Assembly: GCA_050117845.1 (NCBI GenBank) | Contig: JASFLY010000003.1 | Span: 124,949 to 188,948, forward strand | DNA: 64,000 nt | Direction: 5' to 3' | Source of the DNA: Candidatus Zixiibacteriota bacterium | GTDB lineage: Bacteria; RBG-13-66-14; B26-G2; WVWN01 | Shown here: positions 1-28,200 of the stretch, piece after piece | Layout of the letters: the number at the start of each line of letters is the position of its first letter | How positions within the stretch are numbered: position 1 is the stretch's first letter | Translations under genes and position numbers: made by a program | The notes under the pieces: generated by a model | Database searches by the model: none | Seen by the model: the letters and a program-made list of their open reading frames with translations, nothing else | What the model was told of the DNA's origin: nothing

Positions 1-1161
1 GCCGACGGTTCGGACCGAGTCAGGCTCAAGCTAAAGGGAGGTTTGTGGGGCGCGCCGCACTTCTCCCCCGACGGCTCGAAGATAGCGTTCATCGGCGACC
101 GCGAGTGCTTCCCGTACGGCAACGTATTCCTGGTCAACGTCGACGGGACCGACCTGAAGGCCGTAACCGCCTACGGCGACGACCCCTTTGAAGTTGACTA
201 CAATACCGGCCGGAAACTCGGCGTCCTCGACGCGGGCTTGACGTTCTCGCCCGACGGCGGCCGTATCCTTTACCTCTCGGACGAGTTCGGCTCCTCGGAT
301 ATCTACGCGATTAACGTTGACGGCACGGGGAAGACGCGCCTGACCGATTTCGCCGGCTGCGACGAATACAAACCCATCTTCCTCCCCGGCGGCGAGCTGC
401 TATTCACCGTAAAGGGGACTTGGGACAAGGCCGGCTTCTGGATTATGAACGCCGACGGCTCGGCCCAAAGGAGACTGGCGACCGGCGAAGACCTAGCGCT
501 GGTGGCGCTTTCGCCCGACGGCACGAAAAGGGCGTACGCAGGCCGCTTCGGCGAGGATTACGCCACCTACGTCGCCGATCTCGACGGCTCGGGCCGTTTC
601 AAGGTGGCGGACGGCGGCGTCTACCTCTCGTTCTCTCCCGACGGGGAAAAACTCGTATATTGCGATGACGACCGCGTTTACATCGTCAACGCCGACGGCT
701 CGGGCCGGAGAGCGCTGACGCCGGAATGGCCCATCGCGTACGGCGCGACCTTCGCCGCCGGCGGCGCGAAGATAATATTCCTGGGGCGTCCCGCCGGCGC
801 CGAGGAAATAGGACTCTATACCATGAACGCCGACGGATCGGAGCGGACGCCGTTCCGGGCCACGAAGGACATGTACGTCGGTGGGCCGGTCGACATATTC
901 GGCTCCTGTTGCGGCCTCGTGGTCTCCCCCGCAGGCGACAGGTTCCTCTTCAACGGCGATTATAAGGACTACGTGGGCGACGCCCCCGTCGACTACTTCG
1001 CCGTCAACGTCGACGGCTCGGGCCTCGCGCGCATCTCGGAGTACAACTACAAAACCAACCCGCGGCCGGAGGAAGAAGTAACGCCTTACGGCGGAGATCG
1101 CGCGGAGTCCGTAACCCCGGACCCGTCGCAAACGACGAAGGTCCATTGTCCCGATCGGTAA
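1..1161 (+). CDS. PD40/TolB-like beta-propeller repeat protein (5' partial, or TTG start at 43)
   Basis: Frame is open from base 1 to TAA at 1159-1161; repeated SPDG/VDG strand motifs (FSPDGSKIAF, LSPDGTKRAY, FSPDGEKLVY, VNVDGT, MNADGS) typical of PD40 repeats; hairpin terminator directly downstream. Confidence 0.6.
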   Translation, partial: ADGSDRVRLKLKGGLWGAPHFSPDGSKIAFIGDRECFPYGNVFLVNVDGTDLKAVTAYGDDPFEVDYNTGRKLGVLDAGLTFSPDGGRILYLSDEFGSSDIYAINVDGTGKTRLTDFAGCDEYKPIFLPGGELLFTVKGTWDKAGFWIMNADGSAQRRLATGEDLALVALSPDGTKRAYAGRFGEDYATYVADLDGSGRFKVADGGVYLSFSPDGEKLVYCDDDRVYIVNADGSGRRALTPEWPIAYGATFAAGGAKIIFLGRPAGAEEIGLYTMNADGSERTPFRATKDMYVGGPVDIFGSCCGLVVSPAGDRFLFNGDYKDYVGDAPVDYFAVNVDGSGLARISEYNYKTNPRPEEEVTPYGGDRAESVTPDPSQTTKVHCPDR

Positions 1162-2356: not shown

Positions 2357-2869
2357 TCAACCCGTGCGGAGAGACGGCTGGACGGACAGGTCGGAAAAAG
2401 GCCGCGTTATCTTCTCGGCCGGAAAGGTTACGTAGTTCCATCCCTTGACGAGTTCGCCCCGCTCCGACGATAGGAGTATCTCGTTGCTCCCCAACGATAC
2501 CGTCAGGAACCAGGGATTGCCTTCCGTATCCGGCAAATAATACACCCACATACCGACCCGGGTCACGGCCCCTGCCGTTATCTCCCGGCCGAAGTTTTGC
2601 GTTATTTCGCCCCACACCGCCTGTTCGGCGTCGAAGCCCGGGGCGCCTGGGCGGCCGCAAGAATCGCCGCTTATTAGCTCATAGAAGTACGCGCCGTAGG
2701 ACCCGGTGCGGGCCCCGTCGGCGGAAATCCCCATGTTCGTCGTTACCCAGGGCGAGGCGTTCCCGGACTCGAAATCGCCGTTCTCTACCACGTTATCGGC
2801 CGCATACGCCGCACCGGCTGCGAATCCGGCGGCCAATACGATTATAGTTATCATTATCCGCTTCTTCAT
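2357..2869 (-). CDS. secreted hypothetical protein, possible carbohydrate-binding-like domain
   Basis: Clear N-terminal signal peptide (MKKRIMITIIVLAAGFAAGAAYA); NGDFESG motif reminiscent of CBM-type beta-sandwich domains; no other motif recognised. Confidence 0.55.
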   Translation of the reverse strand: MKKRIMITIIVLAAGFAAGAAYAADNVVENGDFESGNASPWVTTNMGISADGARTGSYGAYFYELISGDSCGRPGAPGFDAEQAVWGEITQNFGREITAGAVTRVGMWVYYLPDTEGNPWFLTVSLGSNEILLSSERGELVKGWNYVTFPAEKITRPFSDLSVQPSLRTG

Positions 2870-2951: not shown

Positions 2952-2985
2952 AAAAAAAAAGACGCCCTTTCGGGCGCCGTTTTCT
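2952..2985 (-). terminator. intrinsic terminator (minus-strand reading)
   Basis: Plus strand A9 + GACGCCC-TTTC-GGGCGCC + GTTTTCT; on the minus strand the hairpin is followed by T9, just downstream of the Roadblock gene stop at 3004. Confidence 0.55.
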
Positions 2986-3003: not shown

Positions 3004-3390
3004 TTAGTAAAACGCCTCCAGATCTCCCTTAAGTTCGTCGATAACGGCGGAGACGGCCGCTTTATTCCCCTCCCCCTGAGCCGACAAGGTCACGATGTAA
3101 AATTCTTCTTCGGCCTCGCCGGCGTGAATGAACGGATAGAACGTGAACACGTCTCCCGTCTCGCGCCGGATCTCGAGTTCCTCAACCTGGCCCAGGCCGA
3201 CCGCGACGGTACGACGGAATATCTCGGCCGCGGCGGCCGTCAGCGCGGCCACGTTCTCCTGCCGGTCGGCGGCGGCGGTTTTCGCCCATACTAGGCCGGT
3301 CCGGCTTATCAGGTACGCAACCCGATAACCGCCGGCCCCGACCAACTTCTCCAGCGCCCGGGCGAATAGCGTTTCGCGGTAAAATACCAT
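3004..3390 (-). CDS. Roadblock/LC7 domain protein (MglB-like)
   Basis: ~128 aa; start taken at internal ATG (MVFYRETLF...) rather than the 179-aa ORF-track extension; size and hydrophobic pattern fit the Roadblock fold; two further Roadblock genes in the window. Confidence 0.6.
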   Translation of the reverse strand: MVFYRETLFARALEKLVGAGGYRVAYLISRTGLVWAKTAAADRQENVAALTAAAAEIFRRTVAVGLGQVEELEIRRETGDVFTFYPFIHAGEAEEEFYIVTLSAQGEGNKAAVSAVIDELKGDLEAFY

Positions 3391-3872
3391 ACTCGTCAGT
3401 CGGGCCGTACAATGTAGCCCGGCCCTTTCGGGGAAAGCCCCCTGGCCGCCCCTTGTTCCGCAAACATTAACGTAAATACGACCGCCTGGCAAGTTTTTTA
3501 TCGCTACCCGGCCCGGGGTTAAACGGCGATGATAAATTTGCACCGGCCTTGGTATATATGATATATTTTTATGGGTTTACTATCGTCTTTTTCGCGGGAT
3601 TCAATGTTGGCAAGGGTACTTTCTCACGTTGAGGTAACCGGTCATATAAAACGCAAATAAACGGGGAAGCATAACTGACGCGTTTTAACGGAATATATAA
3701 CGTTCGGACCCGGCCGCTTCGCCCGACTCTAGCCCCCCTCTGCGTCAACATCCCCTCCTTACCTGACGTTATATTTCTCCCGTAAAAAAGTTATGGGGCG
3801 GCGACGCCGTTAACCAGCGGCCGACCTTCACGATTTACCGGCGCCGCGCCGGGCGACGAAGAGGAAAACACT

Positions 3873-6236
3873 ATGACGGGTAACGGCCTTCGCGTCCTTA
3901 TCGGATGGAAGGAGATCGCGAACTACCTGGGTTGTTCTACCTCGACGGCGGTACGCCGCGTGGACGACGGCCTACCGGTCTTCCGCGTGGGGGGAAGCGT
4001 CCGGGCCTTCGTCGACGACATCGACCGCTGGCTAGAGGGTGAACGTATCCGGAAGTTGGAGGAGCCGCCCAAGGCCGAGACCGATTACCCGGGGATCGTG
4101 GTCAACCGCGAAGAGCTCGGCGACACCATGGCCTCCTTCGCCCGCGAAAGGAAAGACGAACGCTTCGCCGTAATCCCACTGGGAATCGATACCTCCAAAT
4201 ACGAAAACATAGAACTTCGGCTGAAAACGGCCGAAGAAAAGTACCGTTGGTTGTTGGAGACTGTCCCGGTTTGGATTTGGGAAACGAACGCCGACGGAGA
4301 ATATACGTATTCCAACGTCGCTATAAGGGACATACTCGGATACCGGCCGGAAGAGCTCGCCGGTTTCAAACCGGTGGAATTCCTCGTCGCGCCGGCCGAC
4401 GTCGAGATACACAAAAACGAGACCGATAACCTCCGGCAGAATAAAAGAGTTATCCGTGACTTCCAATGTCGCTACATCCACCGGGACACCTCGATCAAAT
4501 GGTTGGAGACGGACGCCGAGCCGATTTTCGAGAGCGGTGGGGAGTTCTCCGGCATCCGGGGCGTCAGCCGCGATATCACCGTACGGAAGAGAGTCGAGGC
4601 CGCGCTCCGGCAAAGCGAGGGCCAGTATCGGACCTTGTCGGAAAACATCCCGGTAGGCGTATTCCGTATGGCCGCGGATCCCACGGGCCGTATCATATCG
4701 GCGAACCCGGCGTTGGCCCGCATGTTCGGGTTCGACAGGCCGGAGGACATGGTGGGCGAACGTATCGCCGATTTCTACGCTGACCCAACACGCCGTTCCG
4801 GGTTCGTCGGGGCCGTCGCCGTTAAGGGCGAGATTACGAACTTCGAGGCGCGCCTCAAACGCCGCGACGGGAGCGAGTTTTGCGGGTCGTTCTCGGCCCG
4901 GGTCGGCCGCGGCGAGGACGACGCCATCGTCCATTACGACGGCGTTTGCGAAGACGTCACGGAACGCCGCCGGGTCGAAACGGCCCTGCGCAAAAGCGAG
5001 CACGAAAAAACAGTTATCCTGGAAAGCATGGCGGAGCTGGTCGTCTACGTAGGCCGCAATCTCGAAATTATATGGGTGAACCAGGCCGCCGCCCGTTGGG
5101 CCGGGGCCGCCCCCGAGGACATGGTGGGCCGGCCGTGTTTCGAGGCTTGGTACGAGAGAAGCGAGATGTGTGCGGAATGCCACGTTAAGCGGGCCATAGA
5201 AACGGGCGAACCCCAGGAATTGGAGCTGACCACCGCCGACGGCAGCATCTGGCACGTACAATGCAATCCCGTACGGGACGAGGAGGACGGTATCTGCGGA
5301 GCGGTGGAGGTATCGCTGGACATCACCGAGCGCAAACGGGCCGAAGAGGCACTACGCGAAACGTTAACGAAAAACGACGCCCTCCTGGAAGCCATCCCCG
5401 ATTTGATGTTCATTCTCAAGCGCGACGGAACATGCGTCGATTTCAAGCGCGGCCCGGCTGAACTATTCGCCCTGCCGCCGGATCAATTAATAGGCGCGAA
5501 TATCCGGGATATCGGCTTTTCCCAAGCCGACGAACGGCGGGCCTTCGAGGCGATTGAGGAAACGATACGAACCGGCAAGACCAGCGTCATCGAGTACGAG
5601 CTCCCCATACCCGGCGGTCTGAAGACGTTCGAAGCCCGTCTGGCCAAACTCGACGACGACCGAGTCATATCCGTCGTGCGAGATATAACGGAAATAAAAA
5701 AAGCGGAACGGGCCCGGGCCGAACTCGTTTTCGAGAAGGCCGCCGCCGCCATCTCCCGGGAATTCATCCGCGCCCGGAATATGGACGAAGCAGTGGAAGC
5801 TTCGCTCGAGATAATGGTCAACTTCAACGGGGCCGGCCGCTCATACTTGCTTACTTTATCGGAGGACGGCAAGGAAATAACTAACACCTACGAGCGCCTG
5901 TCCCCCGGCGTAGGGCCACGACCAGAGGAATTACGCCGGGTTCCAACCGATCCGTACGTATGGGGCACGGCGCAACTCCGTCAGGGCGAACCTCTAAGTA
6001 TTTCCGACGTCCGGGCCCTGCCCCATGAAGCCGCAGCGGAGAAGAAAACCCTCGAGGAACTCGGCGTCAAGGCCGTTTTGGTATTGCCGTTGTTCACCGA
6101 AAAAGATGAGCTCCGCGGTTTCGTCGGTTTCGATAATTGCACCGCGCCCGGCGATTGGAAAGAAGTCGACCTTGATCTGCTCCGATATTTCGCCGAGACT
6201 TGGCAATACGCCGTAAGCCGTAACCTTTTCGAATAA
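3873..6236 (+). CDS. one-component regulator: N-terminal excisionase/MerR-like HTH + multiple PAS domains + C-terminal GAF-like domain
   Basis: N-terminus LIGWKEIANYLGCSTSTAVRRVDDGLPVFRVGGSVRAFVDDIDRWL matches HTH_17/excisionase-type DNA-binding domains; at least four PAS units separated by DITVRKR/DVTERRR/DITERKRAEEAL/DITEIKKAE linker helices; one PAS carries CFEAWYERSEMCAECH; no kinase domain. Confidence 0.8.
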   Translation: MTGNGLRVLIGWKEIANYLGCSTSTAVRRVDDGLPVFRVGGSVRAFVDDIDRWLEGERIRKLEEPPKAETDYPGIVVNREELGDTMASFARERKDERFAVIPLGIDTSKYENIELRLKTAEEKYRWLLETVPVWIWETNADGEYTYSNVAIRDILGYRPEELAGFKPVEFLVAPADVEIHKNETDNLRQNKRVIRDFQCRYIHRDTSIKWLETDAEPIFESGGEFSGIRGVSRDITVRKRVEAALRQSEGQYRTLSENIPVGVFRMAADPTGRIISANPALARMFGFDRPEDMVGERIADFYADPTRRSGFVGAVAVKGEITNFEARLKRRDGSEFCGSFSARVGRGEDDAIVHYDGVCEDVTERRRVETALRKSEHEKTVILESMAELVVYVGRNLEIIWVNQAAARWAGAAPEDMVGRPCFEAWYERSEMCAECHVKRAIETGEPQELELTTADGSIWHVQCNPVRDEEDGICGAVEVSLDITERKRAEEALRETLTKNDALLEAIPDLMFILKRDGTCVDFKRGPAELFALPPDQLIGANIRDIGFSQADERRAFEAIEETIRTGKTSVIEYELPIPGGLKTFEARLAKLDDDRVISVVRDITEIKKAERARAELVFEKAAAAISREFIRARNMDEAVEASLEIMVNFNGAGRSYLLTLSEDGKEITNTYERLSPGVGPRPEELRRVPTDPYVWGTAQLRQGEPLSISDVRALPHEAAAEKKTLEELGVKAVLVLPLFTEKDELRGFVGFDNCTAPGDWKEVDLDLLRYFAETWQYAVSRNLFE

Positions 6237-6277: not shown

Positions 6278-6302
6278 AGCGCCCTCCGGGGCGCTTTTCT
6301 TT
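6278..6302 (+). terminator. intrinsic terminator
   Basis: AGCGCCC-TCCG-GGGCGCT hairpin followed by TTTTCTTT, 40 nt after the stop. Confidence 0.6.
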
Positions 6303-6630
6303 ACGATAAACGGCAAAATAGCATTAAATGAGTAATTTACTTAACATATATGATAAATTTTGAGTGAATTCGACAGGTTTTGACGAAAGCAGGACGATTT
6401 TACTCCGCTATATATATAATGGAATCAGTATTGGAACGTCGTTTATTACTGGGCCGCCCTAAAAGTCAACTATAGTCGGCCCAACTGTACCCCCCCCAAA
6501 GTAGTCCGCTCTTTAACCGTTCCCTAATGATTTCGAAGCCCCGGCGCAATGCCAGCCGGGTATCCCTTACGCCGTCGTGCCTACCGGCCGTCGGACAACC
6601 GATTAGTAATAACGCACAGGAGGATCGAGT

Positions 6631-7002
6631 ATGGCCAAATCCCGTTCTGAAACGCTAAGGAGCATCCTGAAAGACTTGGAGGCCGCGACACCCGATATCG
6701 AGGGGAGTTGCGTTGTGTCCTCCGACGGCCTGGTAATGGCCAGCGCCCTGCCGGCCGATGTCGACGAGGACCGGGTAGCCGCGATGGCGGCCGCCTTGTT
6801 GGCCCTCGGCGACCGAAGCGCGACGGAGTTGGACCGCGGCGAGTTGAGCGAGGTTTTCGTCAAAGGTGAACACGGTTATATCGTATTGATGGGCGCGGGG
6901 CGGGAAGCCGTACTGGGAGCGCTTTGTCGGGAAGACGCGAAACTGGGCATGATATTCCTCGATATGCGTCGCGCCTCCAAAGAAATCGGCGACCTGGTTT
7001 AA
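6631..7002 (+). CDS. Roadblock/LC7 domain protein (paralog A)
   Basis: AGGAGG RBS; 123 aa; near-identical to paralog at 8805-9176; pattern GSCVVSSDGLVMAS...GYIVLMGAGREAVLGALC fits Roadblock/LC7 (MglB/CvnB-like). Confidence 0.75.
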   Translation: MAKSRSETLRSILKDLEAATPDIEGSCVVSSDGLVMASALPADVDEDRVAAMAAALLALGDRSATELDRGELSEVFVKGEHGYIVLMGAGREAVLGALCREDAKLGMIFLDMRRASKEIGDLV

Positions 7003-7077: not shown

Positions 7078-7563
7078 TTGGACGCACGAGGATATAATTC
7101 ACTACTTAACGTGACGATGTACGGTTTTGGGGCGGCCCTCAACAACCTGGTCGACCTCAACATGGTTCGTCTCGTCATCCGCCAGTTCGGAGACGCCCTG
7201 GTGGATTCCGAATTCGGCCCTAAATTCCTGAAAGGCATCGGATTCGAAGAACCAAAGGGTGACGACGTGCCTTCGCTGACTAAAGCGTACGCCGAGGAAA
7301 TGAAGAAATCCGGCATTACCCAGGTGTTCGACGTAGTCGAGGCCACGGACGAGAAACTCGTCCTGGATATCGGCATGTGCGTTTTCGCCTCCGCCACCGC
7401 GGCATTCAGGGCCGAAGGTATCGAAATTCCGCCCTGCCCCATCGTCGGGATCGTCCTGGCCGGCCTGAACAAACGGCTTAAGGTCAACGGCAAGGTAGCT
7501 TCGGCCGAATATAAATCGCAAGCCAATACGACGCTCTTCACTATCGACCTTTACGGCCGGTAA
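7078..7563 (+). CDS. hypothetical protein
   Basis: GAAAGGAG RBS 6 nt before TTG start; 161 aa; no confident domain; conserved Cys pair (MCVFASATAAF...PPCP). Confidence 0.5.
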   Translation: MDARGYNSLLNVTMYGFGAALNNLVDLNMVRLVIRQFGDALVDSEFGPKFLKGIGFEEPKGDDVPSLTKAYAEEMKKSGITQVFDVVEATDEKLVLDIGMCVFASATAAFRAEGIEIPPCPIVGIVLAGLNKRLKVNGKVASAEYKSQANTTLFTIDLYGR

Positions 7564-7910: not shown

Positions 7911-8045
7911 ATGGCAAATTCGAAATCAGATTGCAAGTGGGCGCAGGGCGACCCGGATCCTACCGGCCTATTCTGGTGCGATAAACTGGGCCGTATGGTC
8001 AACGGCGAAGAAAAGCCGGTCTGCGAACACTACAGTTCCGAATAA
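7911..8045 (+). CDS. small Cys-rich peptide, tandem copy 2 (44 aa)
   Basis: GAGGAG RBS; MANSKSDCKWAQGDPDPTGLFWCDKLGRMVNGEEKPVCEHYSSE; below the ORF-track size cutoff, read directly from the sequence. Confidence 0.45.
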   Translation: MANSKSDCKWAQGDPDPTGLFWCDKLGRMVNGEEKPVCEHYSSE

Positions 8046-8101: not shown

Positions 8102-8227
8102 ATGAGTAAGGGAGACTGTAAGTACGCTGGCGAACCTAATGAATTGGGTCATACATGGTGCGACAAAATGGAGCGCTATGTACCCCCAAAGGACGAAGAA
8201 AACTGTGAGTTGTATGAACCCAAGTAA
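8102..8227 (+). CDS. small Cys-rich peptide, tandem copy 3 (41 aa)
   Basis: MSKGDCKYAGEPNELGHTWCDKMERYVPPKDEENCELYEPK; same CK(W/Y)A...WCDK...C.(H/L)Y motif, more diverged. Confidence 0.4.
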   Translation: MSKGDCKYAGEPNELGHTWCDKMERYVPPKDEENCELYEPK

Positions 8228-8804: not shown

Positions 8805-9176
8805 ATGGCGAAGTCCCGCGCAGATACGCTCAGGGACATTTTAAAAGACCTCGAGGCTGCGACCCCCGATATCGAAGGGAGTGTCGTCGTCTCGGCCGAC
8901 GGCCTGGTAATGGCCAGCGCGCTTCCGTCGGACGTCGACGAAGACCGCGTAGCGGCCATGGCCGCCGCGCTGCTGGCCCTGGGAGACCGGAGTTCCACGG
9001 AACTCGACCGGGGCGACTTGAGTGAAGTTTTCGTAAAGGGCGAGAAGGGTTACATCGTCCTGATGGGCGCCGGCCGCGAAGCGGTACTCGGCGCTTTGTG
9101 CCGCGAAGACGCCAAATTGGGTATGATTTTCCTTGATATGCGTCGGGCGGCGAAAGACGTTGAATCGGTAGTATAG
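8805..9176 (+). CDS. Roadblock/LC7 domain protein (paralog B)
   Basis: AAAGGAGG RBS; 123 aa; ~85% aa identity to 6631-7002. Confidence 0.75.
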   Translation: MAKSRADTLRDILKDLEAATPDIEGSVVVSADGLVMASALPSDVDEDRVAAMAAALLALGDRSSTELDRGDLSEVFVKGEKGYIVLMGAGREAVLGALCREDAKLGMIFLDMRRAAKDVESVV

Positions 9177-9300
9177 CGTCTTATGCCGGAGATTGGCGGA
9201 TCCCCGGTAACGATTGACGAATTTCCCGGGTCCCCGAAAAGAAAGCTAAAACAGACAACCCCGGGACCAATGAGAGATAAGCTAAGGAGGTGCCTTATTA

Positions 9301-17978: not shown

Positions 17979-20900
17979 CTATTCTATCGGGAATTTTTCC
18001 TCCGGACTTATACCGTACTTTTTCATTTTGTACCTTAAGTTCGTTTCGGAAATCTCCAATTTACGGGCCGCGGCCGCTTTCACCCACCTCGCCTCCTCGA
18101 GCGCCTCGAGAATCATCTCGCGCTCCAGGTTGGCCAGAGACTCGTTCAGCGAGGAACTGCTCGTGCTACGGCCCGGCCTTCCCATTTTCCTCAGGTTAAC
18201 CGGGAGGGCATCGGGCTCGATAACGCGGCTCGACGTGGCCGTAAGGGCGTACCGTACGCAGTTTTCCAGTTCCCGCACGTTTCCGGGCCATTCGTACGCC
18301 GTCATTATCGCTACGGCCTCCGGTGAGAACCGGGGCCTGTCTTTCGCCTTCCCCTGGTAATATGTGGTCACGAAATGATTCAGGAGTTCCGGAATGTCCT
18401 CCCGGTGTTCCCGTAAAGGCGGACAACCGATAAGGAAGACGTTCAGACGGTAGAACAAGTCTTCCCGGAACTTGCCGCTGGCGATGGCCTCCGGCAAGTC
18501 GGCGTTGGTCGCGCTTACGACGCGGGCCTTCAACGGGATGGTTTGATGCGTGCGACTGCCGAGCCGGACGAACCTTTTCTCCTGGAGGACGCGGAGCAGC
18601 TTGGACTGGGTATTCATATCCATGGCCGCGACCTCATCCAGGAAGATAGTCCCGTCGCCGGCGCGTTCGAAGAGGCCGATCCTCTTGTCGACGCCGGTCG
18701 CCGTCCCCTTTTCGATCCCGAACAACTCGCTCTCCAGAAGCGCCTCCGGGATGGCCGCGCAGTTCACGCCGATGAACGGCGCGTCCGCGTTAGGGCTGAG
18801 CGTGTGGACCGTTCGGACGACGAGTTCCTTGCCGGTGCCCGACTCCCCGACGACGAGAACGTCGACGTTGGCCTGGGCCGCCGAAGCGACGGCGCCCCGC
18901 AATTCCTCCATGACCTGAGACGAACCGACGAGCAGGGGTTTGGCCGCTTCCTCCCGCGGCGCGATGCTTATGGTGGCGAAACTCTCCTCCGAGCGGCGAC
19001 GGCGCCGTTCGATTTCGTAGGCCGCGGCGCGCGCGAAGACCTGGGCGAAATTCAGGTCCTCCTCCGCGAAAAGGCTCTCGCGCTGAAGGCTGTCGAGGTA
19101 GACGACGCCCTGGAAGGCCCCGTCCCCCCCGGCGAGGGGGATACATATCAACGAACGGATTCCGTGGAGCTGGACGCTGGCGCTGTCCTTGAAACGGAAG
19201 TCCTCGGCGGCGTTGGGGCTGAACACGGCCTTCTTGGATTCGGCGACGTGGCCGATAATCGTCTTGCTTATAACGGACGCATCCTCGATGGTGGAGTCGT
19301 CGACGCCGGCGGTTCCCTTAATCCGCAGGACGTTGTTGTGCTCGTCCAGGAGGAAAATCACGCCGCGGTCGGCCTCCAGCCTTTCGGCCAGATACGACAG
19401 TATAAACTTCAGAAGATCGTCGAGGTCGGGCTGGTCGGACAGTTCCTTCAACCCGTCGGCCAGTTCCGCGAGTTTCTTCTCGCCTTCGTCGCTGTTGCGT
19501 TCCGCCATAAACAAGTTCCCTTCCAACTCGAATATTTTTACGCGGTACTTATTCACGCCAATCTCGCCGAATAGAGTCTTGGCCTTTTCGAGGTCGTTCC
19601 GCGCCTGCCTTATTATATCAACGTCTCCGGCCCCGCGTAAAGCCTTTAACTTCAATTCGGCTCGCGCCATGTAGCAGCGCCCGAGGAAATACTTGCTGCT
19701 CAGCGCCGTAAAAGTGGAGAGTGCCTGGTCGAGGTACGCTTCCCCGAGGTCGGCGTCGCCTCGTGCTCCCGAGAGCTCCCCCCGGGTAAGCAAAACCTTC
19801 GCGTGTTCCAATTTGTCCCCGGAGTCTTCCAGGTTCTTAAGACAGCGCGCCAATTCCTCCTCGGCCTCTTCGTAACGGCCGGCCAGGAATAGCACCCGGC
19901 CACGGAGGGAACGGGTATCGTCGACCTCCGTCCGGGCCCCTCGCTCCGTGAACGACTCCTCCGAACGTTTCAGGTGTTCCAACGCCTCGTCTAGTTCGCC
20001 GTTCTCGGCCGCGATTAGCGCCCGATAATAACTAGCGTACCCGGGGATCGCCCCGGCCAGGGACTCCTCGGCGTCCAACTCGTCCAGGTAGAACTCGGCC
20101 CGGCGGTACTCTCCGGCGCGTATCATGTTCGCCGCGGACCCGACGTAAATCGACGCCAGGAGTTCCGGATTGTCGATAAGTTTGCACTCCGCCTCGGCGG
20201 CCTCGAATTCCCGGGCGGCCCGTTTCACGTATCCCTGGTTGTGATATATCCGGGCCAGCCGGATGAGGGACGCGACCAGGGCGTAGCGGTCGTGGGCCCT
20301 CTTGGCCAGCTCGATGCTGCGCCGGGTCGCGTCTTCGGCCCGTTCCACGTCCGCCCTCCACAGCAGAACCTCGCCGGTCAGATTCAACGCGATGGAAGCC
20401 AGCCGGGGCTTGCCGGCCTCCTCGGCCAGTCGGGCCGTTTCGGCGAACGCGGCCAACGCGGCGTCGGCGTCGCCGGCGTAATAGGATATCGCGCCCTTGA
20501 CGTAATTCACGTACGCCACGAGGTCGGGACGGTCCACCGCCGCGGCCAATGCCTCCGCGTCTCGCGCCAGCGTTATCGCCCGGTCGAAATCCCGGTTGCG
20601 GAAGTAGGTCCAGGCCAGCAAGGCCTGTCGCAGAAACCTATCCCCCGCTTCCAACTCGTCGGGCGGGAGACCGTCCAGGTCCCGGGCCGGCGCTTCGAAG
20701 TCACCCAACACCAAACGTTCCCGCGAGAGTTGCAGCAGCGCTTTTCCGTAGCCGACCTGGCCGGGCTTCCGGCACCGCACCAGGGCGTCGTAGTAGCCGA
20801 GGGCCGAGGCGTGGTCCCCCATGGCGGAATAAGCCTCCGCCAAATCGGTGACCGCGTCCTCGTACGCCTCGCTGTACCAGTTGCCCTCGGTCGTCAGAGC

Positions 20901-22958
20901 CGCCTCCAGGAGTTCGACCGCGCGTTCGAAATCGTTCGTCCGGGCGGCGGCCCGGCCCGCCTCGAGGAGAGGGCCCCGGGCCTTGCGGCTCGACCCCATG
21001 CGGAGGTAGGCCCGGCCCTTCGCCTCCAGCGAATCGACGTCGCGGACGCCGTTTCGGTCCAGGAAGGCCACGACGCCGGCCGAGGCTTCCTCCAGATACT
21101 CCTCCCGAGCCCACTCCAGAACGTACTCCCTCACGGCGGCGTTCGCGAAGGAATACCCGGCGTCAGGCGTCTCCTCCTTGCTAATGACGCCCGCCTCCAC
21201 CAACCGGCCCAAGACGCCCCCGTCCTTAACCAACTCGCCCGGGAAATAATAGCCGTACGCCGCGGCCAGCGCCAGCGATTCCTTCTCGTTCTCCCCCAGG
21301 CGCTCGATAACGCCGACCAGATAGTCGTCCGGCGCCGGGCAGACGGTCGCGGTTTTCAGGCTGCCGTAATCGACGTGCCACCCGTCCAATCGGCGTATAA
21401 CCGTCTTCTCCGCGATAAGATGTTCTATAGTGCGGCGGAGGACGCCGGGGTTCCCTCGCGCCAGCCGCTTGACGTGGCGGGATAAAGCCGGGTCCACCTT
21501 GGGCACGCCGAGGGCGTATTCCAGATAACGCTCCGTCGTTTCTTCCGAGAAACCCTTTAATTCGAACTTCTTTACCGTTAACAACCCTTGCGGGCCGGCC
21601 AGGATTTTTTTCGTAAAGGCGCCGCCGGGCCGAGCGAGCGCGATTACGAACTTCACCCGGCCCCGGAACGGATAGTTCACGAGGCGCGTTACCGATTTCG
21701 CCGTTCCTCCGTCCTCCGCGTCGACGTTGTCGAGAGCCAGGACGGTCACGTCGTACTTCCCCGACGAGTCGTTCAGACTGCGGAGGACGTCGGCCTCGCC
21801 GGCGACGTCGTACGCCGGGGCCCCCATCAGGGCGGCCTCCAGCGAGCGCGAAATGCCGGTACCGTCGTAAGCCTCCGGGAAAGCGGCGCGGACGCGGACA
21901 CCGAGAACGCGACGCAACGCCCGTAATACGCCCTCGCCGGCGCCGCAGTCGACGTATAAAAAGGAACCCCGCTTTAACTGAGCGACCCGGCCTACTTCGC
22001 GCAAAAACGCCGTCTTCCCGACGCCCGCCGAACCCTCCACGATGAAGACCTCCGGCCCCTGATTATCGCCGGAAGGACGGAAAACGTCCGTCACCTCTTT
22101 CTCGTAACCGAAGAAACGGCCGGTCGCGAGGTCCGTTTCTATGCGCATCGTTTCGGGAAGAGGGATATCCTGAGCCCGGGCGAGTTCGGCCAGTTTCGTT
22201 ATGGCTTCGTACGCGGACGCGAACCGGTCCGCCGGATTGTGCTGGACCAACCGCGACGCGAAAACGTCCAATTCCGGGTAAACGTCCGGGGCGACCTCGC
22301 GCAAGCGTACGTAGTCGTACCTCGGCTTACGTTTGACCCGGGATATATCGTCGCCGGGCATGAACGGCAAGCGGCTTGTGATAACCCGGAAGAACAGGAT
22401 GCCGAACGAGTAAAGGTCGGACCGGGGATCGTCCATGACCCCCTGGAAGACCTCCGGCGCTATGTACTCCATGGTACCGGAGACGGGATAGCGGTCCTCA
22501 CCCTCGACCTGGCGGACAAGGCCGAAATCCCCCAGGATGAAGCGGCGCCGATCTTCAGCTTTGGCCTCGAAAACGTTACCCGGTTTCACGTCGCCGTGGA
22601 TTATGCCGCGCCGGTGGACGTAGTCGAGGGCGGACAATAGCTGCAGGGAGAAGTCGAAGAGGTATGGGAGGTTAATGTCCGGGCCGGCCTGGTCGAAGCG
22701 CCACCCGGCGTAATAATCCATCGTATAATAAATGAAATCCTGTTCTTCGCCGAAATCGTAAACGCGTACGATATTGGGATGGTCGAGGTACGTGAGGGTT
22801 TCGAACTCCCGTCTGAGAAGCTCGATGGGCCTTGCCCGGGATTTATCGACGGTTTTAATGGCGACGACCTTTTCCCGGCTACGGTCGAAGGCTTTTACCA
22901 CTTCCGACGTAGGAGTGCGGGCAATTTGTTCTATTATGTCGAACCTGTCGTCGAGCAT
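17979..22958 (-). CDS. multidomain regulator: Ser/Thr protein kinase-like + STAND/NACHT-type P-loop ATPase + TPR + GAF + sigma-54 interaction AAA+ domain + Fis-type HTH
   Basis: Kinase motifs VAIK, HGDVKPGN, DFG, APE (Gly-rich loop absent); Walker A VEGSAGVGKT; long TPR-like helical region; GAF (RGVIFLLD...GVVYLDS); EBP domain VLVVGESGTGKE, ESELFG, GAFTGA-variant GTATGV, C-terminal HTH. Confidence 0.85.
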   Translation of the reverse strand: MLDDRFDIIEQIARTPTSEVVKAFDRSREKVVAIKTVDKSRARPIELLRREFETLTYLDHPNIVRVYDFGEEQDFIYYTMDYYAGWRFDQAGPDINLPYLFDFSLQLLSALDYVHRRGIIHGDVKPGNVFEAKAEDRRRFILGDFGLVRQVEGEDRYPVSGTMEYIAPEVFQGVMDDPRSDLYSFGILFFRVITSRLPFMPGDDISRVKRKPRYDYVRLREVAPDVYPELDVFASRLVQHNPADRFASAYEAITKLAELARAQDIPLPETMRIETDLATGRFFGYEKEVTDVFRPSGDNQGPEVFIVEGSAGVGKTAFLREVGRVAQLKRGSFLYVDCGAGEGVLRALRRVLGVRVRAAFPEAYDGTGISRSLEAALMGAPAYDVAGEADVLRSLNDSSGKYDVTVLALDNVDAEDGGTAKSVTRLVNYPFRGRVKFVIALARPGGAFTKKILAGPQGLLTVKKFELKGFSEETTERYLEYALGVPKVDPALSRHVKRLARGNPGVLRRTIEHLIAEKTVIRRLDGWHVDYGSLKTATVCPAPDDYLVGVIERLGENEKESLALAAAYGYYFPGELVKDGGVLGRLVEAGVISKEETPDAGYSFANAAVREYVLEWAREEYLEEASAGVVAFLDRNGVRDVDSLEAKGRAYLRMGSSRKARGPLLEAGRAAARTNDFERAVELLEAALTTEGNWYSEAYEDAVTDLAEAYSAMGDHASALGYYDALVRCRKPGQVGYGKALLQLSRERLVLGDFEAPARDLDGLPPDELEAGDRFLRQALLAWTYFRNRDFDRAITLARDAEALAAAVDRPDLVAYVNYVKGAISYYAGDADAALAAFAETARLAEEAGKPRLASIALNLTGEVLLWRADVERAEDATRRSIELAKRAHDRYALVASLIRLARIYHNQGYVKRAAREFEAAEAECKLIDNPELLASIYVGSAANMIRAGEYRRAEFYLDELDAEESLAGAIPGYASYYRALIAAENGELDEALEHLKRSEESFTERGARTEVDDTRSLRGRVLFLAGRYEEAEEELARCLKNLEDSGDKLEHAKVLLTRGELSGARGDADLGEAYLDQALSTFTALSSKYFLGRCYMARAELKLKALRGAGDVDIIRQARNDLEKAKTLFGEIGVNKYRVKIFELEGNLFMAERNSDEGEKKLAELADGLKELSDQPDLDDLLKFILSYLAERLEADRGVIFLLDEHNNVLRIKGTAGVDDSTIEDASVISKTIIGHVAESKKAVFSPNAAEDFRFKDSASVQLHGIRSLICIPLAGGDGAFQGVVYLDSLQRESLFAEEDLNFAQVFARAAAYEIERRRRRSEESFATISIAPREEAAKPLLVGSSQVMEELRGAVASAAQANVDVLVVGESGTGKELVVRTVHTLSPNADAPFIGVNCAAIPEALLESELFGIEKGTATGVDKRIGLFERAGDGTIFLDEVAAMDMNTQSKLLRVLQEKRFVRLGSRTHQTIPLKARVVSATNADLPEAIASGKFREDLFYRLNVFLIGCPPLREHREDIPELLNHFVTTYYQGKAKDRPRFSPEAVAIMTAYEWPGNVRELENCVRYALTATSSRVIEPDALPVNLRKMGRPGRSTSSSSLNESLANLEREMILEALEEARWVKAAAARKLEISETNLRYKMKKYGISPEEKFPIE

Positions 22959-23836: not shown

Positions 23837-24829
23837 ATGTCCGTAAAGCGTGCGGAACGGCTCTTTCATATGATAAGTATATTAAGGACGGGACGGGGAT
23901 ATACCGGGGCCGAGTTGGCCGACGTCATGGGCGTTTCCCAACGGACGGTTTACCGAGACGTCGTCGACCTGTCGGGACTGGTGCCCATATATTACGACGA
24001 CGGGTACCGGCTCCTGTCCGATACTTTCCTGGCCAACCTCACTTTCACGCGCGAAGAATTGGTGGCCCTCAAGCTGGGCGTACAGATGCAGGCGCTGGCC
24101 GAAGCCTCTCACCTCGGCGCCGCGACCCAATCCGTCCTCGCGAAAATCGACGAACAGCTGGAACGCCGGTTCCAGGGCGAGGCGGACGACGGCGACGTAA
24201 TATCGGTCCACGTGAAGGCTCACCCGATGGGAGAGAAGACGGTGCGGGTCCTACGAGACCTGGAGGACGCGGTACGGCGCCGCCTGACCGTCGAATTCTC
24301 CTATTACACGCTCAGCCGAAACGAGAAGACCAAACGGACGGTCGACCCGTACGGCCTGACGTTCCGACGCCATAGCTGGTACCTGGTGGGCTATTGCCAC
24401 CTTCGCCACCAGGCGCGCGTATTCCGTCTCGATCGGATCTCCTCCGTTGCGGCCACGTCACACAAATTCGAACGGCCCAAGGACTTTTCGCTGGAAGAGT
24501 TCTTCGCCGATACCTGGGAGGTATTCGCCTCCGGCCCTCTGGCCGACGTCGCGTTGCGCTTTTCCCGGCACGCGGAATTCATCGCCCGGCCCACGCTGGG
24601 AGGCCGCGGCGAGTTCAACCTTGAACGAAAAAGCAATAAAATAGTATTTCGCGGAGAAGTCCCTGTAACGGACGAATTCGTACGTTGGCTTCTGACGCTT
24701 GGAGAGAACGTCGAGGTCCTCGAGCCGGCCGAACTCCGCGACAGGGTAGCTTCCCGCCATCGCTCCGCAGCCGAACTCTACGAGCCTATCGTCGCGGAGG
24801 CGGGTTCGCGAGGGATAAACACCGGGTAG
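23837..24829 (+). CDS. WYL-domain transcriptional regulator (HTH + WYL)
   Basis: AAAAGGACGG RBS; N-terminal HTH (YTGAELADVMGVSQRTVYRDV); WYL signature HSWYLVGYCHLRHQARVFRLDRI. Confidence 0.8.
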   Translation: MSVKRAERLFHMISILRTGRGYTGAELADVMGVSQRTVYRDVVDLSGLVPIYYDDGYRLLSDTFLANLTFTREELVALKLGVQMQALAEASHLGAATQSVLAKIDEQLERRFQGEADDGDVISVHVKAHPMGEKTVRVLRDLEDAVRRRLTVEFSYYTLSRNEKTKRTVDPYGLTFRRHSWYLVGYCHLRHQARVFRLDRISSVAATSHKFERPKDFSLEEFFADTWEVFASGPLADVALRFSRHAEFIARPTLGGRGEFNLERKSNKIVFRGEVPVTDEFVRWLLTLGENVEVLEPAELRDRVASRHRSAAELYEPIVAEAGSRGINTG

Positions 24830-24966: not shown

Positions 24967-25185
24967 GTTATCGATATTGTCCGTTTCCCTTCCGTTTTCC
25001 AAACCCTTACTAACGTCAAAGGCTTGTCCGAAGCCGTTACCAGGGCCGCCCCGTCGGCGTTCCACCGTACGACCGGGCGGACCGTATTGTAGCGCCGTTC
25101 CCCGAAAGCGGAACGGGCCGGCGAATAGGGCGGACGTAAGTCGCGCCCGACAATTTAAGATAGAAATTTGACAAGCGTAATGGGG

Positions 25186-25212
25186 GCCCGGGGATTACGG
25201 TCCGGGCTTTTT
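25186..25212 (+). promoter_or_regulatory. terminator/attenuator-like hairpin in the 5' leader of the RT-sensor gene
   Basis: GCCCGG-N10-CCGGGC + TTTTT ending 3 nt before the GAGGAGG RBS (25216-25222) and ATG 25231; a third CCCGGG at 25224-25229 allows alternative pairing over the RBS; TTGACA hexamer at 25168-25173. Confidence 0.4.
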
Positions 25213-25230
25213 CCCGAGGAGGTCCCGGGA

Positions 25231-28200
25231 ATGGACTTTTGTTCGGCGGACGACCTGGCGGCGGCGTGGCCCTACGCCCGTCGGGATGCCGCGGACAATT
25301 TCGTCTTCGACGTTATCGATTATGAAGACGTCAAACATAACCTGCCGCATATAATCCGGCGGCTCGAGCGCGAACTCCGGACGGACCAGTATAAACCGGC
25401 CCCCCTTCTGTCCGTCGATATACCGAAAAGGCCCTACACCATCCGCCCGGGCGCAGTCGTCTCTTTAATCGATTTAATCGTACTTTACGCCCTGGTCAGG
25501 AAAATAGCGCCGGCCCTCGACGCGAAATTATCGCCCGGCGTATTCTCCTACCGTTGGGTCCCCGAGGGAAAAAAGCCCAAGTGGTCCATCTTCTCGGAAT
25601 CGACCCAGGACGAATGCGGCATCGACGAAATCCTCCCCGCCGCGCCGTTCGCTCCGTACCCTCCTTTCGACGAGGCCGCGCCGGCGGGATGGTTCCGGGG
25701 GTGGATAGAATATCACGAGCGCGCGAAAGATTCCGCCGCCCGCTATAATTATTGCGCCGTCGGCGACGTTACAGCCTATTTCGAAAACGTCGCCGTGACG
25801 TCGCTCTTCAACCGTATAGGGGACCTCCTCGGCCCGGAGCACTCGGAAGCCCTCACCCGCCTCCGCCGCTTCTACGAGTATTGGGCCTGGCATCCAGCCG
25901 GTACGACCACGCGCGGCGAAGTCCTCCCCCAGGGCAACGATATATCGCTCTTCCTCTCGAATTTCTATCTGACGAAACTCGACGAGGCCATGGCGGCCGA
26001 AGTCCAGAACGACCCCCGCCGGTACTTTCGCTACGTCGACGACATCTGCGTCTTCACCGATACCCAGGAGCAGGCCCACCACTCCCTCCTCACCGGCGAC
26101 CGGGTGCTGCGCGATCTGGGGCTGAACCTTAATACGGAGAAGACCGGGATCGTTCCCACATCCCGCCTCTTCGACCGGGACGTGGAGCGCTGGCTCGAGG
26201 ACATGTCGCCCGTTACGGCCAACGCCGCCGAGAACGCCCGTGACTTCTTTAAGAACCGCTTCGACGCCGACGACGTCGAGAAGTGGGAACGCGCTTACCT
26301 GCGGGCCTTAACGACTCTCCAAAGAGCCGGCGACTGTTCGGTCGCCCCCGCCGCCCTTCAGGTTTTCCTGGAGAACCCCACGTACAAACTGCTGGTTAAA
26401 AATTTCGATTACCTTAGCTTCTTCGCGGAGCGTTTCCGATTCGGCGACGACGTCGCCCGCCGGATCACCGAGGGAACGTTCAACTTTCCATTCCACAAAC
26501 ACTACCTTTACCGCCTGGCTGCTTACTGCCGGCAGAACTCCCCTTCTCTCCGCGAGCAAGCTCTGGAAGAAGCCCGCGGCGACGCCGAATGGTACGTCCG
26601 AATCGCCGCGTTATACTGCCTGAACACGTTCAACCTTTCGCCCGACGAACTCGACGCCGTCGAGGAACTGGCGGGCAGCGAGGCCCACCCGCAAGTGGCC
26701 CGCGCCGCGCTCGTCGTTTTGCGACAACGGCCGGCCGACGAGGTCGCCTCGGCCGAGGATCATTTCCTCTTTACCACCGCGCCCGGCCAGGAGAACCTAC
26801 GCGAATATTTCTTCCGCCTCACGACCGAAGAGGAATTGGCGCGTGCCGTCCTCGAGCGGATCCGGAACCAGGAGGTGGCCTCGCGCGCTTTCCTGAACCG
26901 CCTCCACCAACTGGACCTCCTCAAGGGCAATCCCGCCGTCCGCGAGGAATACGGCCGGATCCTCGAACAAAAGATAGACGAATGCGACCCGGCCTGGACC
27001 CGCCTCTATAGCCGCCTCCGGCGCATCGCCGAACTGGCGTCGGTAAGTGCGTTGCGCGTTCGAAAAGCGCGCAAAATCGCCCGGGCGCAAGGCCACCTTC
27101 AAACCCTGCTGCGAAGCTCGCGCGAGGCCGTCCTTATAACCGGCCCGGGAGGAGACGTCCAGGTCTGGAACGACGCCGTGAACAAACTCCTCGGTTACGG
27201 CCGCCGCGAGGTCCGCGGGAAAGACGTGACCGACATCTTGCCTTCCCCCGGCGGCTTCGCGTCCGCGGACGAACTCACGGCATACGTCGCCGAGAACGGC
27301 GGATGGCTCGTCGAGGAGGCAACCCTTTACGAGCGGCCGGACGGCGCGCTGATTGACATTTCCACCACCTATTCCGTTATCACGGATCCCATTACGGGCG
27401 AGCCGGTCGGCCTCCTTATCCTTGTACGCGACGCGACCGCCGAAGTACGGGCCGCCCGCATCGAACAGGTACAAATCGCCACCGAACAAACCCTGGCCGA
27501 CGCCACGGTCCGGCTTGTCTCGCCGGAAGACCTGGACGCCGCCATTGAGCACACCCTGCGAGAGACGGCGGACGTGCTGAACGCGCAACGGGCCACCGTT
27601 TTCCGTTTCAGGGAAGGAACACTCGTCCTCGATGTAACCCACGAATGGTGCGCGCCCGGCGTCCCTTCGACCCGCGACTCCGGAGGAAAACTGGACCTCG
27701 GCGAACTCCCGGACGTCCGCGAGCGCTTGCATTCCGAGCGCGTCCTTTCGATATCGAACCTCTCCACTCCCAGCGCCGGGAGTCAACGGGTGATGAAGGA
27801 ACGGGGTGTCAAAGCGGCCCTCGTCGTCCCGTTCTATATTTCCGACGAGATGACCGGCCTAATAGCGTGCACCGATACGACCCGGCCTCGCGACTGGGCG
27901 TACGGCGAGGCCAATCTCCTCTTCGCCGTAACGGCGCTTATCTCGAAAGCTCTGGCGCGCCGGGAAGCGGAGGAGGAAAAGCTGGTGAGCGAGGTCCGCT
28001 ACCGGGCCGTCGTCGAAGACCAAACGGAGCTGATATGCAGATGGCGGCCCGACGGGACCCTTACCTTCGTTAACGAGGCTTACGGCCGGTATTTCGGGAA
28101 ATCGCCCGGCGAACTGGTGGGCCGGAGTTTCATCCATTTTATCTCGGAGGAGGATCGCGAAACCGTCGAGGCCGAATTCGCGTCTCTGGGTCCGGACAAA

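Follow-up and report, generated by a model that had tools for sequence, protein, structure and literature searches.

A divergent gene pair for a small Roadblock protein and an HTH-PAS-GAF sensor in a bacterial GTPase/PATAN/Roadblock cluster

A divergent Roadblock and sensor gene pair

Two divergently oriented genes are described here from a 64,000-nucleotide (nt) stretch of DNA, called the window, that derives from a Candidatus Zixiibacteriota bacterium (GenBank assembly GCA_050117845.1, contig JASFLY010000003.1, positions 124,949 to 188,948 of the forward strand). One gene codes for a small Roadblock/LC7 protein, which we term RoblA, and the other codes for a large protein, which we term REG, that joins a helix-turn-helix (HTH) domain to PAS and GAF sensor domains. 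Both names were coined for this analysis, coordinates are positions in the window (Table 1), and L001 to L030 denote the comparison loci. A preliminary description of this DNA had proposed that the Roadblock gene is under sensory transcriptional control exerted from the intergenic region that the two genes share. The two genes themselves are real, as judged from their open reading frames (ORFs), homologues, predicted fold, and domain matches. We favor, with a probability of roughly 45%, a reading in which RoblA and REG belong to a conserved GTPase/PATAN/Roadblock gene cluster and REG would serve as the sensor-transcription factor of this cluster, acting on a back-to-back promoter region.

Homologues of RoblA were collected by a profile search of 5.8 billion proteins, which yielded 12 clusters at 44-95% identity. 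A second count gave nine clusters with expectation values (E) below 1e-6 among 1.84 billion representative proteins. A peptide-pattern scan of metagenomes for further RoblA loci returned zero matches, and the family was widened instead by the protein-collection profile search. The closest named relative is the chromosome of Candidatus Coatesbacteria bin961 (CP070633.1), which carries a RoblB homologue with 82% identity and a REG homologue whose N terminus is 65% identical. What is new here is a Roadblock subfamily, together with an embedded HTH_17-PAS-GAF sensor, in a small-GTPase/Roadblock/PATAN cluster of known type.

Table 1. Features of the gene pair and its neighbors in window coordinates (aa, amino acids; p followed by a number, protein of that length in aa)
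Feature	Position	Strand	Basis
RoblA, 128-aa divergent Roadblock/LC7 (MglB-like) protein, monocistronic	3004..3390	-	ORF, homologues, fold
RoblA promoter, predicted: -35 TTGCCA (3487..3492), 17-nt spacer, -10 TAATGT (3464..3469)	3464..3492	-	conservation
RoblA intrinsic terminator, GGCGCCCGAAAGGGCGTC then T9	2961..2978	-	sequence
Shared RoblA/REG spacer, 482 bp, with predicted back-to-back promoters and REG leader	3391..3872	.	sequence
REG promoter, predicted: extended -10 TGATATATT	3559..3567	+	conserved placement
REG, 787-aa cytoplasmic one-component sensor	3873..6236	+	ORF, domain matches
REG HTH_17 winged helix, aa 9-63	3897..4061	+	Pfam, model
REG low-confidence linker, aa 64 to about 119-130		+	model
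REG PAS1, about aa 120-236	4230..4580	+	domain match
REG PAS2, about aa 250-363	4620..4961	+	domain match
REG PAS3, about aa 377-484, contains CAECH	5001..5324	+	domain match
REG PAS4, about aa 498-605	5364..5687	+	domain match
REG GAF, about aa 620-787	5730..6233	+	domain match, 42.3 bits
REG intrinsic terminator, AGCGCCC-TCCG-GGGCGCT then TTTCTTT	6278..6303	+	read from sequence
p170, secreted protein (signal peptide; NGDFE..W beta-sandwich-like)	2357..2869	-	ORF
RoblB, canonical Robl_LC7 paralog, 123 aa, Asp-Gly kept	6631..7002	+	Pfam, 69 bits
p161, without family match	7078..7563	+	53% identical orthologue in L023
Three tandem Cys-rich peptide genes, 41-44 aa	7701..7835, 7911..8045, 8102..8227	+	ORFs
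RoblC, canonical Robl_LC7 paralog	8805..9176	+	Pfam
p162	9301..9789	+	orthologue in L028
V4R protein 1	9808..10386	+	domain match
V4R protein 2	10388..10999	+	domain match
Class-V aminotransferase / cysteine-desulfurase-like protein	11001..12266	+	domain match
p106	12511..12831	+	orthologue in L028
PATAN/PatA_N (DUF4388) protein	13110..13940	+	domain match
MglA-type small GTPase	13956..14501	+	G1 GDVGAGKT, G3 GTPGQ, G4 NKQD

The RoblA protein

The start codon of RoblA is the ATG at 3390 (MVFYRETLF...), which is found in every homologue and in the gene calls of two independent metagenome copies. A listed ORF at 3004..3543 of the reverse strand would give a protein of 179 aa, and this reading was rejected as over-extended because its N-terminal extension is present in no homologue. 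Likewise, a 60-aa ORF at 3569..3751 of the same strand was discarded because its stretch is missing from the shorter spacer of L002. Between RoblA and a 95%-identical copy in L006, synonymous codon differences outnumber nonsynonymous ones by 12 to 6, a ratio consistent with purifying selection.

By sequence, RoblA lies at the edge of its family. It scores 22.6 bits against the Pfam profile Robl_LC7 (PF03259; cut-off 23), two of its orthologues (P0002 and P0023) carry a precomputed match to this profile, and its identity to RoblB and RoblC, the canonical paralogs in the window, is 31%. An AlphaFold model derived from four family members has a mean predicted local distance difference test (pLDDT) score of 85.3 and the alpha-beta-beta-alpha-beta-beta-beta-alpha order of the Roadblock fold (helices at residues 2-18, 47-63, and 110-127; strands at 24-29, 34-37, 72-75, 81-89, and 95-103). 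The best matches of this model to PDB structures by Foldseek are the MglB proteins of Myxococcus and Thermus (6hjm, 1j3w, and 3t1s; E about 1e-6, probability 1.00), and archaeal and Streptomyces Roadblock structures are also matched with probability 1.00. Identity to MglB over these structural alignments is only 10-20%. Taken with the homologues and the codon differences, the model marks RoblA as a genuine gene whose product has the Roadblock fold.

Two properties have been used to describe MglB proteins that work with MglA-family GTPases. An MglB gene is considered "coupled" when it is encoded within four genes of such a GTPase gene, and an Asp-Gly pair is conserved in MglB proteins coupled to MglA groups 2-5 (PMC4316618). 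RoblA-type proteins carry T/E/A/S-G at this site, with Asp present only in P0026 and P0032, while RoblB and RoblC keep Asp-Gly. The GTPase gene of the window, which begins at 13956, is about 15 genes and 10.5 kb away from RoblA; in L029/L030, where RoblA faces a RoblB-PATAN-GTPase operon, the distance is within four genes. Because the Asp-Gly pair is absent and the window genes are so far apart, RoblA is not termed MglB. It is best called an MglB-like, possibly accessory, Roadblock protein.

The preliminary description called RoblA a lone Roadblock gene. This is apt in the sense that the gene has its own predicted promoter and is followed after its stop codon by a strong intrinsic terminator, which makes it monocistronic; it is inapt in that two canonical paralogs, RoblB and RoblC, lie within the same window. 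Equivalent terminators are present 3' of RoblA in L002, L027, and L029. Beyond the terminator lies p170, the commonest downstream neighbor of RoblA, whose homologues are located 3' of RoblA in L006, L005, L027 (7571..8074), and L029/L030 (L029 6845..7333) at 44-95% identity and whose only family match is a weak one to NTTRR-F1. The p170 gene is set apart from RoblA by the terminator, and in L027 also by a promoter-like site of its own. A gene for a secreted protein here tracks a gene for a cytoplasmic Roadblock protein.

The REG protein

As had been described, REG joins an HTH of the excisionase type to at least four PAS domains and a GAF-like domain; the HTH is N-terminal, and four PAS domains and one GAF domain were found. 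The PAS units are spaced by the usual D-I/V-T-E-R-K-R-A-E linkers. No HisKA, HATPase, receiver, cyclase, or other enzymatic output domain passes curated cut-offs in REG, which combines its sensors and its HTH in one chain without phosphotransfer domains, as is the case for one-component regulators.

The HTH is assigned to the HTH_17 family (PF12728). The full-length protein scores 22.9 bits and the first 64 aa alone score 28.6 bits, relative to a cut-off of 27, and the N termini of all 13 REG-family members examined match this family. The HTH model (pLDDT about 75) has the beta-alpha-alpha-beta-beta-alpha topology of a winged helix, and these 64 positions, 22 of which are invariant, form the most conserved part of the REG family. 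The match to the excisionase profile TIGR01764 is below its cut-off (23.2 versus 28.8 bits). Searches of PDB sequences, whether with the single HTH sequence or with a profile of it, returned insignificant matches only (RdfS 8dgl, E 0.32; a Cas10 fragment, E 0.43). That this domain might be the excisionase of a mobile element was considered and rejected because the annotated neighbors include no integrase or phage genes and PADLOC assigns nothing to REG or RoblA.

Several further features of REG deserve mention. The third PAS domain includes a Cys-rich stretch with a CAECH (CxxCH) sequence (5169..5183; aa 433-437), and Cys/His-rich stretches are also present in the corresponding PAS domains of the REG homologues in L012/L019, L013, and L014. 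The stretch may serve to bind metal or haem or to sense redox state. Within the otherwise variable linker that follows the HTH, a motif G-x-R-[FY]-[AV]-[VLI]-[VI]-[PS]-[LI]-G (ERFAVIPLG in the window; aa 95-104, nt 4155..4184) is kept in all family members and is predicted to form a small beta hairpin. The bin961 genome holds three REG-family paralogs of 1488, 2185, and 239 aa (L013, L014, and L015) that have a common HTH-linker-PAS1 head and very different sensor arrays. Because the head is shared while the arrays differ, it looks like a reusable output module. A hairpin matching the terminator of REG is also located 3' of the REG homologue in L013.

The shared intergenic region

The two start codons are separated by 482 bp, in agreement with the length of about 480 bp given earlier for an AT-rich control region. 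The AT-richness is only moderate, with a GC fraction of 0.52 for the spacer and 0.47 for its core (3451..3750), relative to 0.61 for the entire window.

A sigma70-like promoter is predicted upstream of RoblA. Its pattern, TTGC[CT]N-N17-TA[AT]NG[TG] with an A-rich stretch upstream, aligns 5' of RoblA in all eight lineages included in the promoter alignment, whatever gene faces RoblA, and the copy in L027 was also caught by a consensus scan. For REG, an extended -10 element, TGATATATT, is predicted in the window, and its counterpart in L002 and L023, TGATATAAT, is nearly as far from the start of RoblA. The corresponding promoter in L025 reads TTGACT-N17-TATAAT, and in L028 the sequence TGATACATT precedes a Roadblock operon. 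The RoblA and REG promoters would therefore stand back to back, about 65 bp apart, and REG would have a leader of roughly 300 nt (3574..3872). Transcription is predicted to begin near 3457 on the reverse strand for RoblA and near 3574 on the forward strand for REG.

A long leader of about 100-450 nt always precedes the gene that faces RoblA, whichever gene this is (window, L023, L025, and L028). No sequence conservation could be detected among these leaders, and Rfam models matched none of them, either at the gathering threshold or at E<=1. The 5' region of RoblA folds no better than shuffled sequences (z = -0.5).

Conservation of the gene pair

The divergent arrangement of RoblA and REG is present in four lineages, represented by the window with L001 and L006, by L002-L004, by L023/L024, and by L025/L026. 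Across these lineages RoblA is 46-55% identical and the first 120 aa of REG are 56-62% identical, which excludes the explanation that the loci are redundant assemblies of one population. The loci occupy two separate branches of the RoblA tree. Beyond the HTH, a flexible linker, and a conserved first PAS domain, the sensor array of REG varies with lineage. In L023/L024 the protein has 745 aa, including five PAS domains but lacking a GAF domain, and in L025/L026 it has 2799 aa. The outer neighbor 3' of RoblA also differs, with a transfer RNA-like sequence (recognized by eye) in L002, a CBM9/DUF5916 gene in L023, and p170 in the window.

Divergent gene pairs are common, and the gene opposite RoblA is in some cases an unrelated one for a pst-like transporter, so one could suppose that RoblA and REG are two unrelated genes that came to be adjacent by chance. 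The recurrence of the pair with differing outer neighbors, at RoblA identities as low as 46%, argues against coincidence, as does the occurrence of REG-family genes in Roadblock/PATAN/GTPase neighborhoods in most of the sampled loci. We consider chance adjacency very improbable. What the adjacency implies is that RoblA and REG are members of one functional cluster, and it does not by itself imply that REG controls the transcription of RoblA.

Gene order beyond the pair is also retained in part. The order RoblA<>REG-RoblB-...-p161-three Cys-rich peptide genes-...-PATAN of the window is repeated in L023, and the order REG-terminator-RoblB is kept in L013. In addition, short HTH-PAS paralogs of about 240-260 aa are located in or beside PATAN-gene neighborhoods, in one case (L008) together with GTPase genes. 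The constant feature is the cluster, composed of Roadblock paralogs, a PATAN gene, and a gene for an MglA-type GTPase. RoblA and REG-family genes are recurrent members of this cluster, which is specific to Coatesbacteria-like bacteria, and the RoblA/REG spacer is one arrangement of several.

What REG may control

A plausible reading of the conserved pair, of the DNA-binding-type domain of REG, and of its having no other output domain is that REG controls RoblA. In outline, RoblA would form its own transcription unit, extending from the conserved promoter to its own terminator. By analogy with PAS-HTH one-component factors, a signal perceived by the PAS/GAF array of REG, either a ligand or a redox state, would most likely alter the oligomeric state of the protein or release its HTH. 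The HTH could then bind the bidirectional promoter region, and possibly also sites upstream of the RoblB and RoblC operons, such that REG would adjust both its own abundance and how much Roadblock regulator is made relative to the GTPase. The analysis establishes that the genes are real, what folds and domains their products have, where the transcription units end, and that the linkage is conserved, while the DNA binding of REG, its target promoters, and its signal are conjectural. An arrangement in keeping with a role for REG in this cluster is found in L029, where REG-like genes flank the GTPase end.

The proposal of sensory control thus has a conserved pair and back-to-back promoters on its side, while a series of observations weighs against it. 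In L028, RoblA directly faces a RoblC-p162-V4R-V4R-aminotransferase-p106-PATAN-GTPase operon, and REG is absent from the contig. In L029/L030, it faces the RoblB-PATAN-GTPase operon, with the REG-like genes located beyond the GTPase end, and in L005 and L027 it faces a pst-like ATP-binding cassette (ABC) transporter operon. The RoblA promoter is equally conserved in these contexts in which REG is not adjacent, which weakens the idea that REG is needed for RoblA expression. Conversely, the REG homologues that are nearest by their N termini (67-70% identity in L012/L019, 65% in L013 and L014) have no RoblA gene upstream. Of these long homologues, those in L012/L019 and L014 lie on contigs devoid of Roadblock genes, and that in L013 is followed by RoblB. 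Finally, the HTH_17 fold is known also from proteins that are not classical regulators, such as excisionases and the small subunits of terminases.

The search for an operator likewise gave no support. When the regions upstream of REG and those upstream of RoblB and RoblC were aligned across lineages with MAFFT, only promoters, terminators, and ribosome-binding sites were conserved. Gibbs sampling of seven REG-upstream regions at widths of 12 and 16 gave information contents of 12.6 and 14.5, which do not surpass the shuffled controls (maxima of 12.4 and 14.8). The signals from shared exact k-mers and from k-mer enrichment are weak: the GC-rich palindromic CGGCGCC occurs 11 times (1.6 expected) and AACGTTA five times (0.7 expected), at inconsistent positions and relative to a background model that ignores the patchy composition of the spacers. 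An inverted pair of CGCCGTT(T)AACC sequences (3517..3528 and 3805..3815), both in the RoblA/REG spacer, are the sole copies in the window. This weak operator candidate was not accepted as evidence, because the sequence was derived from that very spacer and the close relative L006 carries changes in both copies.

Some of these same observations would be expected if REG in truth acted on the Roadblock-PATAN-GTPase operons, which begin with RoblB at 6631 and RoblC at 8805, or on genes dispersed as a regulon, with RoblA expressed constitutively and REG occupying the ancestral RoblA-operon leader. RoblB follows REG in the window, L023, and L013; in L028 and L029 RoblA faces a Roadblock operon without an intervening REG, and the L028 operon has a similar extended -10 element, TGATACATT; and the RoblA promoter is of the same type in all contexts. 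The spacers before RoblB and RoblC are also AT-rich (GC 0.48 and 0.45, respectively) and as long as the RoblA/REG spacer. This alternative, which we regard as somewhat unlikely, is opposed by the finding that the regions upstream of RoblB and RoblC share no conserved element with the region upstream of REG. Moreover, REG has its own terminator and so does not merely head the operon, and only the RoblA/REG pair is visible in L002 and L025/26, whose contigs are short or end there.

The failure to detect an operator by Gibbs sampling would also be explained if the pathway operated at the protein level, with REG as a sensor that communicates with the GTPase/Roadblock/PATAN proteins, e.g., by contacting a Roadblock dimer or the GTPase through the linker motif or PAS1, and with the HTH acting elsewhere or not on DNA. 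The position of REG in the cluster varies while its presence in the neighborhood is constant, the ERFAVIPLG motif is conserved, and physical interaction among sensor, Roadblock protein, and GTPase is known for an actinobacterial conservon (PMC4316618). In contrast, the stronger conservation of HTH_17 relative to the remainder of REG fits a conserved nucleic-acid-binding role, and we judge a purely protein-level pathway to be unlikely.

The downstream gene cluster

The genes that follow REG supply the other members of the cluster. RoblB orthologues (about 80% identical) are located 3' of REG in L023 and L013 and are first in the operon in L029/L030. The three Cys-rich peptides (e.g., MANEKSDCKWAQGDPDPTGLFWCDKMACMVNGKEKPTCTHYEKD) have no Pfam match, keep their order in L023 at 73-91% identity, and could be metal-binding peptides or precursor peptides.

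The genes from RoblC to the aminotransferase (8805..12266) keep their order in L028, where the proteins are 74-84% identical. The entire operon-like run from RoblC to the GTPase (8805..14501), which includes a gene for a small Cys-rich protein (p67), recurs at L028 1270..6582 with 57-84% identity, although p67 is neither matched nor called in L028. Orthologues of the PATAN/GTPase end are present in L028, L029/L030, L023, and L008 at 72-80% identity. Proteins of the MglA family are marked by a P-loop, an NKxD sequence, and a G3 sequence in which Thr replaces Asp (GTPGQ in groups 2-5) (PMC4316618), and the GTPase of the window carries all of these. Residues 58-113 of the PATAN protein score 35.2 bits, just below the 38-bit cut-off, against an MshE-related motif (NF053729) that binds cyclic di-guanosine monophosphate (c-di-GMP).

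A survey in 2014 counted hundreds of "orphan" MglB/Roadblock genes in prokaryotes, none of which had then been characterized (PMC4316618). For an orphan-type Roadblock subfamily, the cluster now provides candidate partners in an MglA-type GTPase, a PATAN protein, two canonical paralogs, and V4R proteins, as well as a candidate sensor-regulator. With candidates so defined, the deployment of Roadblock paralogs around a bacterial small GTPase becomes directly testable. Control of RoblA by REG, if true, would be an ordinary relation between regulator and target, useful chiefly as a way into the cluster.

Small-GTPase genes of the Asgard archaeon MK-D1 are reported not to share operons, as a rule, with genes for Roadblock, longin, or TRAPPC3 proteins (PMC10933270). 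Against the background of that discussion, it is notable that a single conserved operon of bacteria unites genes for a Roadblock protein, V4R (TRAPPC3-like) proteins, and a small GTPase. More speculatively, RoblA, REG, and the downstream genes could constitute a single undescribed signaling device in which a sensory transcription factor is wired to a small-GTPase/Roadblock/V4R platform, with REG setting Roadblock dosage and perhaps being controlled in turn by the GTPase or Roadblock proteins. We hold this to be quite unlikely. If it were true, bacteria would have an operon-encoded parallel to the GTPase-Roadblock-TRAPP components that have been discussed for Asgard archaea and eukaryotes, in a form open to experiment since its partners are encoded side by side.

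Other features of the window

Two large proteins encoded elsewhere in the window also include GAF domains. A 3162-aa ORF (25168..34656, forward strand) joins an N-terminal, full-length UG21-class reverse transcriptase (PADLOC RT_UG21, 240 bits over profile positions 2-482 of 503; Pfam RVT_1, 53.5 bits) to at least 10 PAS domains and two or three GAF domains, one of which is 39% identical to the GAF domain of REG. A gene for an HTH_11-WYL-WCX regulator (23837..24829, forward strand) is located directly upstream. In a survey of UG/Abi reverse transcriptases, UG21 is described with HEAT-like C-terminal repeats, and PAS and GAF domains are unmentioned (PMC9226505). This fusion may be more out of the ordinary than the RoblA/REG finding. 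The second protein (1659 aa; 17979..22958, reverse strand) includes a Ser/Thr protein kinase domain, AAA_16, TPR repeats, a GAF domain, a sigma-54 activator domain, and a Fis-type HTH.

Comparison with known systems

The HTH of REG resembles the excisionase family (Xis and RdfS; TIGR01764) in its match to PF12728, its topology, its sub-threshold TIGR01764 score, and its weak match to RdfS 8dgl. The members of that family are small proteins that stand alone and serve mobile elements as architectural or recombination-directionality factors, whereas the HTH of REG is fused to a large sensor array and has no integrase gene among its annotated neighbors.

As a candidate sensory transcription factor, REG is comparable to EL222 (LOV-HTH) and to FG214 from Fimbriimonas, in which a PAS sensor and an HTH output are likewise combined in one polypeptide (PMC13060918). 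REG shares with FG214 the less common order in which the HTH is N-terminal, and FG214 undergoes signal-dependent HTH release and dimerization (PMC13060918). Unlike these two proteins, each of which has a LuxR-type tetrahelical HTH and a single PAS domain, REG has an HTH_17 of the MerR/excisionase type, a linker of about 55 aa, four PAS domains, and a GAF domain.

The joint encoding of a sensor, a Roadblock protein, and an MglA-group GTPase is reminiscent of the actinobacterial conservon (CvnA-D / Mfp) (PMC4316618). The window differs from a conservon in that neither a CvnA-type histidine kinase nor DUF742/CvnC was found among the cluster proteins. Their place is taken by a soluble HTH-PAS-GAF sensor and by PATAN and V4R proteins.

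Gene neighborhoods that combine PATAN with MglB/MglA have already been documented (Makarova et al. 2006; Wuichet and Sogaard-Andersen 2014; PMC4316618), and the window conforms to them in having a PATAN gene beside an MglA-family GTPase gene with Roadblock genes close by. It departs from them by including RoblA, REG, the V4R pair, the cysteine-desulfurase-like gene, and the Cys-rich peptide genes. Neither these additions nor the RoblA/REG cluster as such were found described in the literature searched.

A functional reference point is the MglA/MglB(/MglC) polarity module of Myxococcus xanthus and Thermus thermophilus. Common to both systems are a Ras-like GTPase of the MglA family, here with a GTPGQ G3 sequence, and partners with a Roadblock fold, the best structural matches of RoblA being crystal structures of MglB. 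M. xanthus has MglB and a paralog, MglC, which is described as having a divergent role in motility regulation, and the several Roadblock paralogs of the window cluster find a parallel there. RoblA is nonetheless distant from MglB in sequence and belongs to a tiny clade, most members of which do not have the Asp of the Asp-Gly pair. No motility genes were identified near the window cluster. In further contrast to the MglA/MglB module, the GTPase gene of the window adjoins a PATAN gene rather than a Roadblock gene, and the cluster includes an HTH-PAS-GAF gene of its own.

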